Assembly: GCF_003790525.1 (NCBI RefSeq)
Contig: NZ_CP033635.1
DNA: 64,000 nucleotides
DNA from: Escherichia coli
GTDB lineage: Bacteria; Pseudomonadota; Gammaproteobacteria; Enterobacterales; Enterobacteriaceae
Strand: one strand, 5' to 3'
Shown here: positions 53,201-56,200 of the stretch, piece after piece
How positions within the stretch are numbered: the first letter of the stretch is position 1
Layout of the letters: each line of letters starts with the position of its first letter
Made by a program: the position numbers

Positions 53201-56200
53201 CTGCGGAACAATTTTGTCTGGCGAGGTTACGGACAATCACCTGAACCTTTTCCTGTTCGCATCGCCAGGCCTGCTCAATAATTTTCGCCGCCCATGCTGG
53301 AATATGCGGCGATAAACGGTAATGAACCCACTTTCCTTGCTTGCGGTCCAGCAATAGCCCACTTTCACGCAGTAATGCCAGATGGCGGGAGATCTTGGGC
53401 TGCGACTGATCGAGGGCAGTGCAGAGATCGCAGACGCATAACTCTCCCAGCTCGCTGAGCAGTAAAACGATGCCCAAACGGGTTTCATCGGCAAGAATTT
53501 TGAAGAGTTGGATGGGTAACAGAAATGACATATTGCGCTCCTGATTGTTGCACTTAGTGTCTCTCTTCGAAGCGGATAAGTCAAAAACATATATGGTTTA
53601 ACGAATTCGTATGTGCAGAGGAAGGTAATAGGTGTGAATTTTGAGTTGGGTATTCATTTGAAAGGAGGTCTGAATCAGGACATAAAAAACCGACTTTGCG
53701 TCGGTTTTTTACTCTTCAGCCTGAGTTGGTGGCTCTGGCTGGAGTGAGAGAGCTCTTATCTAACGGTTCAATACTATTAGCCAGTGACTAACATTGCAAG
53801 AATTAGCGATTTCTTCAGCTGGCGGAGGGACAGTTTGCTATACATGGTGGTGAAAGAGGATTGATATACTTTCATCGGGTCGCTGCCGTACCAAGCCTTG
53901 TCCGAATCCGGATGTAAAAAAACCGACTTTGCGTCGGTTTTTTACTTTCCAGCCCTGAGTTGGTGGCTCTGGCTGGAGTGAGAATGCCATCATCTAACGC
54001 ATCAATGCTAATACCATACTGAAACTATTGCAAGGACATGCTGGTTTTATAACCTGAATATACTGTATGATTATCCAGTTAGCTCTGAGGCATTTTCACT
54101 CTGGCAATGCGCATAAACGCTTTCAAAGTCCTGATCAGTGGTACGGGTGGTGCCGTTAACTGATGCTCTGGCCGGAGTGAGAATGCCATTATCTAACAAT
54201 AGGGCATGCGCCGTGACAGGCAATGGATGAGTAAGCGGATGCATTCTCACTCCATCGTATGGAGAACACGGGTGATTGATAAAGCAATCATCGTTCTTGG
54301 GGCGTTAATTGCGCTGCTGGAACTGATCCGCTTTCTGCTTCAGCTTCTGAACTGGTAGCGGAAACGTAGCTAAGGGCTAAGAGCACACTACTCTTAGCCC
54401 TTTAACATTTAACGCATGGTCACGAACTCTTCTGCCGCCGTCGGGTGAATGGCGACGGTATTATCGAAGTCTTTTTTGGTTGCGCCCATCTTCAGTGCCA
54501 CCGCGAAGCCCTGCAACATTTCGTCCATACCAAAACCAATGCCGTGAATTCCGACAATCTTCTCTTCCGGTCCAACGCATACCAGTTTCATGCGGCACGG
54601 CTGGCGGTGAGTGGTGACGGCGGTATACATCGCGGTGAAAGAGGATTTATACACTTTCACCTGATCGTCGCCGTACTGCTCGCGTGCCTGCGGTTCCGTT
54701 AAACCAACAGTCCCAATCGGCGGATGGCTGAAGACCACGGTCGGAATGTTGCTGTAATCCAGATGCTCATCCGGCTTGTTATTAAACAGGCGTTCAGAGA
54801 GACGGCGACCCGCAGCAACTGCCACCGGTGTCAGTTCCACTGCACCCGTGTTATCGCCCACCGCGTAAATACCTTCAACGTTGGTATTTTGATATTTATC
54901 GACGACGATATAGCCTTTTTCGTTGGTTTTTACACCAGCGGCTTCCAGGTTGATGTTGTCATTGGCAGGCTCGCGACCAATCGCCCAAATCAGGCAATCC
55001 ACCGTTTCACTGCGCCCATCTTCCAGCTCCAGCGTCAGGCTACCATCAGCATTTTTCACTACTGCTTTCGGGATGGCGTTGGTGTGCAACTGCGGGCCTT
55101 CGGCGTTCATCACTTCGACCAGCGTTTCAGAGATCATCGGGTCGAAGCTGCGCAGCGGCGCATGTTTACGCACAAACAGATGCGTTTTCGCGCCGAGGCC
55201 GTTAATCACGCCCGCCAGTTCCACGGCGATGTAACCTGCGCCAACAACCGCCACGCGCTCTGGCAAAGCAGGAAGGGCGAAGAAACCATCGGAATCAATA
55301 CCGTATTCCACGCCTGGAATATCCGGGTGGCTCGGACGACCACCGGTGGCGATCAGAATATGATCGGCCGTGATGGTTTCGCCGTTGACTTCAATGGTTT
55401 TGGCATCAACGAAGCGGGCAAAGCCTTTGATTACATCAACGTTATTTTTACCGAGCACGTTCTCATAGGAAGTATGAATACGGTCGATATAGGCGGTACG
55501 GCTGGCGATCAACGTTTCCCAGTTGAACTTATTGATGGTGGTATCGAAACCATAATCCGGGCCGTACATGTGGATCGCTTCACGGATTTGCGCCGCGTGC
55601 CACATCACTTTTTTCGGCACACAGCCAACATTTACGCAGGTGCCGCCCAGCTCTTTGGCTTCAATCAGTGCGCATTTCTGGCCGTACATAGCCGCGCGGT
55701 TGATGGAGGCGATACCGCCGCTGCCGCCGCCGATGGCGATGTAATCATAGTGTTTAGTCATGACATATTGTCCTTATCGTTGATTACCGCGATTGTAGCG
55801 CGAGACGTAATAGGTGCCAGCAATGGCTGCAATTACTCTGGCACGATCCAGCTTACGGTGGCGTGCCCGGTGCCTGCTGGAACCAGTTTGCTGTGCAGCC
55901 ACGGCAGCACGTTATTCATCTGCTGTTCCAGCTTCCACGGCGGGTTAATCACAATCATGCCGGAAGCGGTCATGCCACGGCGATCGCTGTCTGGCAGCAC
56001 CGCCAGTTCAATTTGCAGAATTTTGCGAATGCCGGTCGCTTCCAGGTCGTGGATCATGCGCTTAATTTGCTGGCGCAGCACCACTGGATACCACAATGCG
56101 TAAGTGCCAGTGGCGAAACGTTTGTAACCTTCTGCTATCCCGCTGACCACCGCCTGATAGTCGGTTTTCATTTCATACGGCGGGTCGATAAGGATTAAAC

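Follow-up and report, generated by a model that had tools for sequence, protein, structure and literature searches.

The 20-mer at positions 54061-54080 of the window, by which the whole analysed stretch of 64,000 nucleotides of Escherichia coli DNA is meant, is almost certainly the operator through which LexA controls the dinQ promoter, within a dinQ/agrAB type I toxin-antitoxin locus flanked by arsR and gor. This operator is already known, and its sequence is unchanged in the window. Fernandez De Henestrosa et al. are said to have identified the LexA site of dinQ in 2000. The site was characterised in 2013 (PMC3567139) and 2016 (PMC5066626), and as a discovery it matters little. What is added here is that the second operator proposed beside it is not conserved, and that the primary box is shared by Escherichia and Citrobacter.

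The primary operator (SOS box) of dinQ, tactgtatgattatccagtt (also given as TACTGTATGATTATCCAGTT and taCTGtatgattatcCAGtt), is a 20-bp imperfect palindrome that keeps CTG-N10-CAG around an AT-rich spacer. It departs from the ideal palindrome TACTG(TA)5CAGTA at five positions, three of them in the loosely conserved spacer, one just ahead of CAG (C in place of A) and one at the final base. Because these mismatches lie mostly in the spacer, a search of the window for the strict consensus with up to 3 mismatches gave no match. The strict-consensus test was dropped, and a weight matrix in the style of the heterology index (HI) was used in its place, compiled from 18 E. coli SOS boxes of the literature (PMC3009722, Table 4), among which dinQ is not included. 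With this matrix the box has HI-like scores of 5.20 (plus strand) and 4.90 (minus strand), the best in the 64-kb window, where the runner-up scores 10.2. Functional SOS boxes have an HI below about 15 (PMC11002266) and strong boxes were taken as those below about 6; the dinQ box lies within the functional range. An HI of 4.83 has been published for the K-12 operator (PMC3567139), and an HI of 3.9 in another study, in which the dinQ box is the seventh best in a table of classical SOS genes and better than the boxes of recA, sulA, uvrA and lexA (PMC11228462).

A chance resemblance, in which an AT-rich intergenic stretch happens to hold CTG-N10-CAG and binds no LexA, would agree with the five mismatches and with the frequency of the minimal motif CTGT-N9-CAG, which occurs 8 times in the window against 5.1 expected and is therefore at chance level and uninformative alone. 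This explanation is practically negligible, however, as the matrix score is far better than that of any other site. By the exact score distribution, 64 kb (both strands) should contain 0.0026 sites with a score at least as good as 5.2, and the 877-bp spacer around the box 5e-5, and the score was reached in 1 of 200 first-order Markov simulations. Moreover, the sequence is identical to an experimentally LexA-dependent site of K-12, and Citrobacter, whose flanks have diverged, has a box at the same distance. The resemblance to an SOS box that had been noticed from the sequence is thus borne out, both by the matrix score and by the comparison with the K-12 dinQ operator, which is base-for-base identical. 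On the other hand, the sequence-only reading had supposed that the CCAG half-site may weaken repression, and this is not supported: C precedes CAG in 7 of the 18 reference boxes (recN, dinI, ruvA, uvrD, cho, uvrB and dinB), the dinQ box ranks 8th of 19 by leave-one-out HI-like score, and none of the Escherichia and Citrobacter orthologues examined has lost the C.

Three other LexA-like sites of the window, at 825-844 (in bcsC), 36717-36736 (in hdeB) and 26983-27002 (in the gadA-gadX spacer), score 10.2-10.7 and were judged to be at chance level. The last of them (TACTGTTTATTAATGTAGCA; HI-like 10.7) has TAG for CAG and lies about 30-45 bp upstream of the gadX start codon in AT-rich DNA, where it is probably fortuitous.

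The box lies in the 877-bp spacer between arsR (53178-53531, minus strand) and gor (54409-55761, minus strand). This spacer is 100% identical to that of E. coli SMS-3-5 and a few dozen other genomes, in which RefSeq annotates dinQ at the position equivalent to the coding sequence in Table 1, and it is 96% identical to that of K-12 MG1655, the stretch from the box to the ORF being free of indels. The locus resembles that of K-12 (Weel-Sneve et al. 2013, PMC3567139) in the 20-mer, in its distance to the GTG, in the arsR and gor flanks and in the 5' UTR landmarks. It differs in the three bases just upstream of the box (CTGAATA here, CTGCATG in K-12), by which the weak second site is altered, in the octamer targeted by the antisense RNA (ATGCCATT here, GAGTTCTT in K-12), and in the length of DinQ, which has 28 amino acids here against 27 in K-12. 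The ORF of DinQ, a small hydrophobic peptide, starts with GTG behind a GGAG, and residues 1-27 of the peptide are identical to K-12 DinQ in the protein alignment. At 54353-54358, the K-12 stop codon TGA is replaced by TGG followed by TAG, giving an extra C-terminal Trp (RefSeq WP_077250934.1).

Table 1. Landmarks of the dinQ/agr locus around the operator at 54061-54080 (window coordinates)
Feature	Position	Strand	Basis and remarks
Putative weak second LexA site, TGCTGGTTTTATAACCTGAA	54039-54058		Minus-strand HI-like score 10.5; separated by 2 bp from the primary box downstream
dinQ -10 hexamer TATGAT	54066-54071	+	Inferred; -12 to -7 from +1; 5/6 vs TATAAT; inside the operator
dinQ primary transcript, +1 form, 331 nt	54078-54408	+	K-12 numbering (PMC5066626) via gap-free alignment
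+44 processing site (U44)	54121	+	PMC3567139, PMC5066626, position by alignment; 288-nt product is the translatable form
Antisense-RNA target in dinQ 5' UTR, G88-A119	54165-54196	+	PMC5066626 coordinates; complementarity to agr copies computed
Shine-Dalgarno GGAG, G184-G187	54261-54264	+	Sequestered in a hairpin in the +1 form (predicted fold)
dinQ CDS, GTG start, 28 aa, TAG stop	54272-54358	+	RefSeq annotation of the identical SMS-3-5 sequence, ORF list, protein alignment
dinQ terminator hairpin, by the gor stop codon	54372-54402	+	12-bp stem in both predicted folds; described in PMC3567139
Antisense sRNA gene, agrA position	53914-53997	-	Rfam RF02891 AgrB, 108 bits vs gathering 40; divergent from dinQ
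Antisense sRNA gene, agrB position	53681-53763	-	Rfam RF02891, 85 bits vs gathering 40

Functional data on this operator all come from K-12, where LexA dependence, the start site and processing were determined by experiments on the identical sequence. There, dinQ is induced by UV as a transcript of about 330 nt, with RNA 5' ends at 0, +44 and +125 (PMC3567139). It is induced 6.3-fold by AZT, with an 8.4-fold dependence on LexA cleavage as judged with lexA3 (PMC11228462), and by ciprofloxacin with a log2 value of 3.4 at 120 min (PMC11002266). A mutational repressor footprint by Reg-Seq covers the annotated LexA site and is lost with H2O2 (PMC12133099). By analogy, LexA would be expected to bind 54061-54080 in the present strain as well.

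In K-12, the -10 and -35 elements of dinQ overlap LexA operators (PMC3567139). A generic scan for sigma-70 promoters and terminators of this region missed the dinQ promoter because its -35 is weak, and hairpin terminators because their T runs are short; it returned one promoter-like match at chance level on the minus strand and 0 terminators. The -10/-35 assignment is therefore inferred, the hexamer TATGAT being taken from the sequence together with the published statement of overlap. Transfer of the K-12 landmarks puts the dinQ +1 at 54078, the G of the box CAG. A LexA dimer on the box would then span the promoter from -17 to +3, covering both TATGAT and the start site, so that the promoter would be occluded and RNA polymerase blocked, as far as can be judged from the geometry. 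After DNA damage, self-cleavage of LexA stimulated by RecA would free the promoter for synthesis of the 331-nt dinQ RNA. The sequence-only reading had described the operator as lying far upstream, about 200 nt before the dinQ start. The distance is right (the box ends 191 nt and begins 211 nt before the GTG at 54272), and the box is indeed far from the ORF, but it is not far from the promoter, whose -10 hexamer and start site lie within it. An ORF at 54067-54159 that starts inside the box was rejected, since its ATG lies upstream of the transcription start.

A palindromic box could in principle work in either direction, and the dinQ promoter stands back to back with that of the divergent sRNA gene at the agrA position (start 53997, minus strand), the two starts being 81 bp apart. 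The box might accordingly be thought to control mainly this sRNA gene instead of dinQ. This is very improbable. At 64-83 bp upstream of the agrA start, the box falls outside the core promoter, whose -35 TTGCAA at 54028-54033 and -10 near 54005-54010 show no overlap with it, whereas the -10 and +1 of dinQ are overlapped. In addition, neither agrA nor agrB responded to UV on Northern blots (PMC3567139). The hexamer TTGCAA, itself palindromic, is found both at 54028-54033 and at 53794-53799 and is conserved from Escherichia to Citrobacter. It occupies the expected -35 place of the minus-strand promoters at the agrA and agrB positions, 17 nt from TAGCAT and TAGTAT, respectively, and at 32 nt from the dinQ -10 it is too far away to serve dinQ.

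With dinQ as the gene controlled by the box, the distance of the operator from the ORF is explained by a long processed leader of the mRNA, which had been anticipated from the sequence. The K-12 landmarks, i.e. the GUG at G195, the Shine-Dalgarno sequence at G184-G187, the AgrB target at G88-A119, cleavage at U44, and transcripts of 331 and 288 nt (PMC5066626), map onto the window without indels, and with +1 at 54078 the bases U16, C28, U44, G88, G94, A119, GGAG at 184-187 and GUG at 195 all match. The 5' UTR is thus 194 nt long, which accounts for the gap of 191 nt between the box and the GTG, and it is activated by removal of 44 nt. The 331-nt RNA ends at 54408, adjoining the gor stop codon. 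In the predicted fold of the +1 RNA (z-score -6.6), nt 12-29 pair with nt 93-110 (1:2 duplex) and the Shine-Dalgarno sequence is held in a closed CUCCAU/AUGGAG hairpin. In that of the +44 RNA (z-score -4.4), the internal segment pairs with the segment just upstream of the Shine-Dalgarno sequence (2:3 duplex). These folds match the published logic of a long 5' UTR, in which the mutually exclusive pairings 1:2, 2:3 and 3:4 would control the Shine-Dalgarno sequence. In the full-length dinQ RNA, pairing of the 5' segment with the internal segment would leave the ribosome-binding site free to fold into a hairpin. Loss of the first 44 nt would reopen translation, and binding of an antisense Agr RNA to +88 to +119 would shut it again.

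The centre of the putative second LexA site is 22 bp from that of the primary box. Tandem LexA boxes are known for other SOS genes, namely lexA, recN and ydjM. In K-12, a "second operator" with an HI of 13.82, overlapped by the -35, has been proposed beside the primary one (PMC3567139), and the counterpart in the window scores 10.5, with 0.01 sites of this kind expected in the spacer. Repression might therefore need both sites, occupied by two cooperative LexA dimers, in which case the single box would be half an operator. Such a requirement is unlikely. The promoter-proximal trinucleotide of the second site, canonically CAG, is CTG here and CCG or CTA in other Escherichia, and the HI-like scores of the site among Escherichia are spread from 8.3 to 15.9. 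No counterpart was found in the Citrobacter loci examined, although they keep the primary box, and an HI near 14 comes close to the accepted limit (below 15; PMC11002266). The function of the second site is thus doubtful.

The primary box, by contrast with the second site, is conserved in orthologous promoters. The promoter region is present in 4610 of 5426 complete E. coli genomes. In seven E. coli sampled across the identity range from 100% to 88.7%, the 20-mer is invariant in all seven and the bases directly on either side vary; the lack of a variable column within the box among these seven is weakly significant (about 0.23 by a simple count). Species-representative genomes were also scanned with an anchor in the ORF only, namely degenerate DNA for the peptide MIDKAIIVLGA with the box excluded, which gave 11 loci. 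A strong box stands at -211 from the start codon in all Escherichia loci (E. albertii, E. whittamii, Escherichia sp. E1V33 and E. coli), two Escherichia representatives carrying the one-base variant TACTGTGTGATTATCCAGTT (A7G). Two Citrobacter loci have AACTGTATACTTATCCAGTT at -210, with three substitutions and an HI-like score of 5.5, and both flanks are heavily diverged. Conservation alone is nevertheless insufficient as proof of selection for LexA binding, since the -10, the start site and the first transcript bases share the bases of the box. The box also overlaps the 5' stem of the transcript, in which the first bases GUUAG are predicted to pair with CUAAC at +115-119.

Paralogues of dinQ (dinQ/dqlB) are carried by about 1600 plasmids (IncX3, IncF and others). 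Those on plasmids and outside Escherichia (dinQ/dql; Kristiansen et al. 2016) are like dinQ in the peptide (MIDKAIIVLGALI...) and have a 5' UTR homologous to that of dinQ from about +29 or +66 on. Unlike at chromosomal dinQ, a LexA-like site was not found within 330-500 bp in the four plasmid dinQ/dqlB and two Pantoea loci examined, where the best HI-like score was 13 or worse. LexA control therefore appears to be specific to chromosomal dinQ of Escherichia and Citrobacter.

Two divergent Agr sRNA genes complementary to the dinQ 5' UTR were recognised by Rfam and by computed duplexes, and the presence of dinQ together with two genes of the AgrB family identifies the locus as dinQ/agrAB. The copy at the agrA position (ATGCCATC) pairs with the target patch over 32 nt with one G.U pair and one mismatch (duplex -58.1 kcal/mol), whereas the copy at the agrB position has five mismatches to the dinQ target of this strain (-45.7 kcal/mol). 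In K-12 the computed duplexes are reversed, with -58.2 kcal/mol for agrB and -42.7 kcal/mol for agrA. In this strain, the role of cognate antisense RNA thus seems to have passed from the agrB-position copy to the one at the agrA position. Further co-varying alleles of the target (TAGTCGTC, ATGCCCAC and TAGTTATC) are found in other strains and species, and in other strains each is matched by one copy. In three E. coli genomes of the phylogroup B2 type, arsC and not arsR is nearest to the dinQ/agr locus, and upstream of dinQ the only agr copy found was one at the agrA position.

The promoter region is absent from 816 of the 5426 complete genomes (about 15%). In E. coli ST-131 NZ_CP157672.1 (338-808, compared with 53990-54190 of the window), a 199-bp deletion is found. 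In ST131-type genomes this deletion lies between the agrA repeat and its homologue in the dinQ 5' UTR. Lost with it are both LexA sites, the promoters of agrA and dinQ, and some 110 nt of the UTR; the dinQ ORF of NZ_CP157672.1 is still annotated, with an L-to-Q change. There is about an even chance that the antitoxin is switched by an 8-nt patch co-varying between the dinQ 5' UTR and one sRNA copy while the LexA box stays fixed, and that the same repeats drive the ST131-type deletion. If so, the statement that AgrB is the antitoxin and AgrA is not would be specific to K-12, and the locus would illustrate in nature how an antitoxin can switch its specificity and how repeats can mediate loss. 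A membrane-depolarising toxin under LexA control bears on SOS-linked persistence, and the distinction between lineages with the operator (most E. coli), without it (plasmid dql and Pantoea) and with it deleted (ST131 type) could guide the choice of strains.

The other LexA-controlled type I toxin-antitoxin locus of E. coli is tisB/istR-1. The two have in common a LexA box at the toxin promoter, a trans-encoded antisense RNA, a long, translationally inert primary transcript that is activated by 5' processing (+42 in tisB, +44 in dinQ), and a small membrane-depolarising peptide as the product (PMC5066626). Their sequences are unrelated, and tisB employs a ribosome standby site whereas dinQ employs mutually exclusive hairpins. 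The tisB box is also nearer to the consensus, with an HI of 1.8 against 3.9 for dinQ (PMC11228462).
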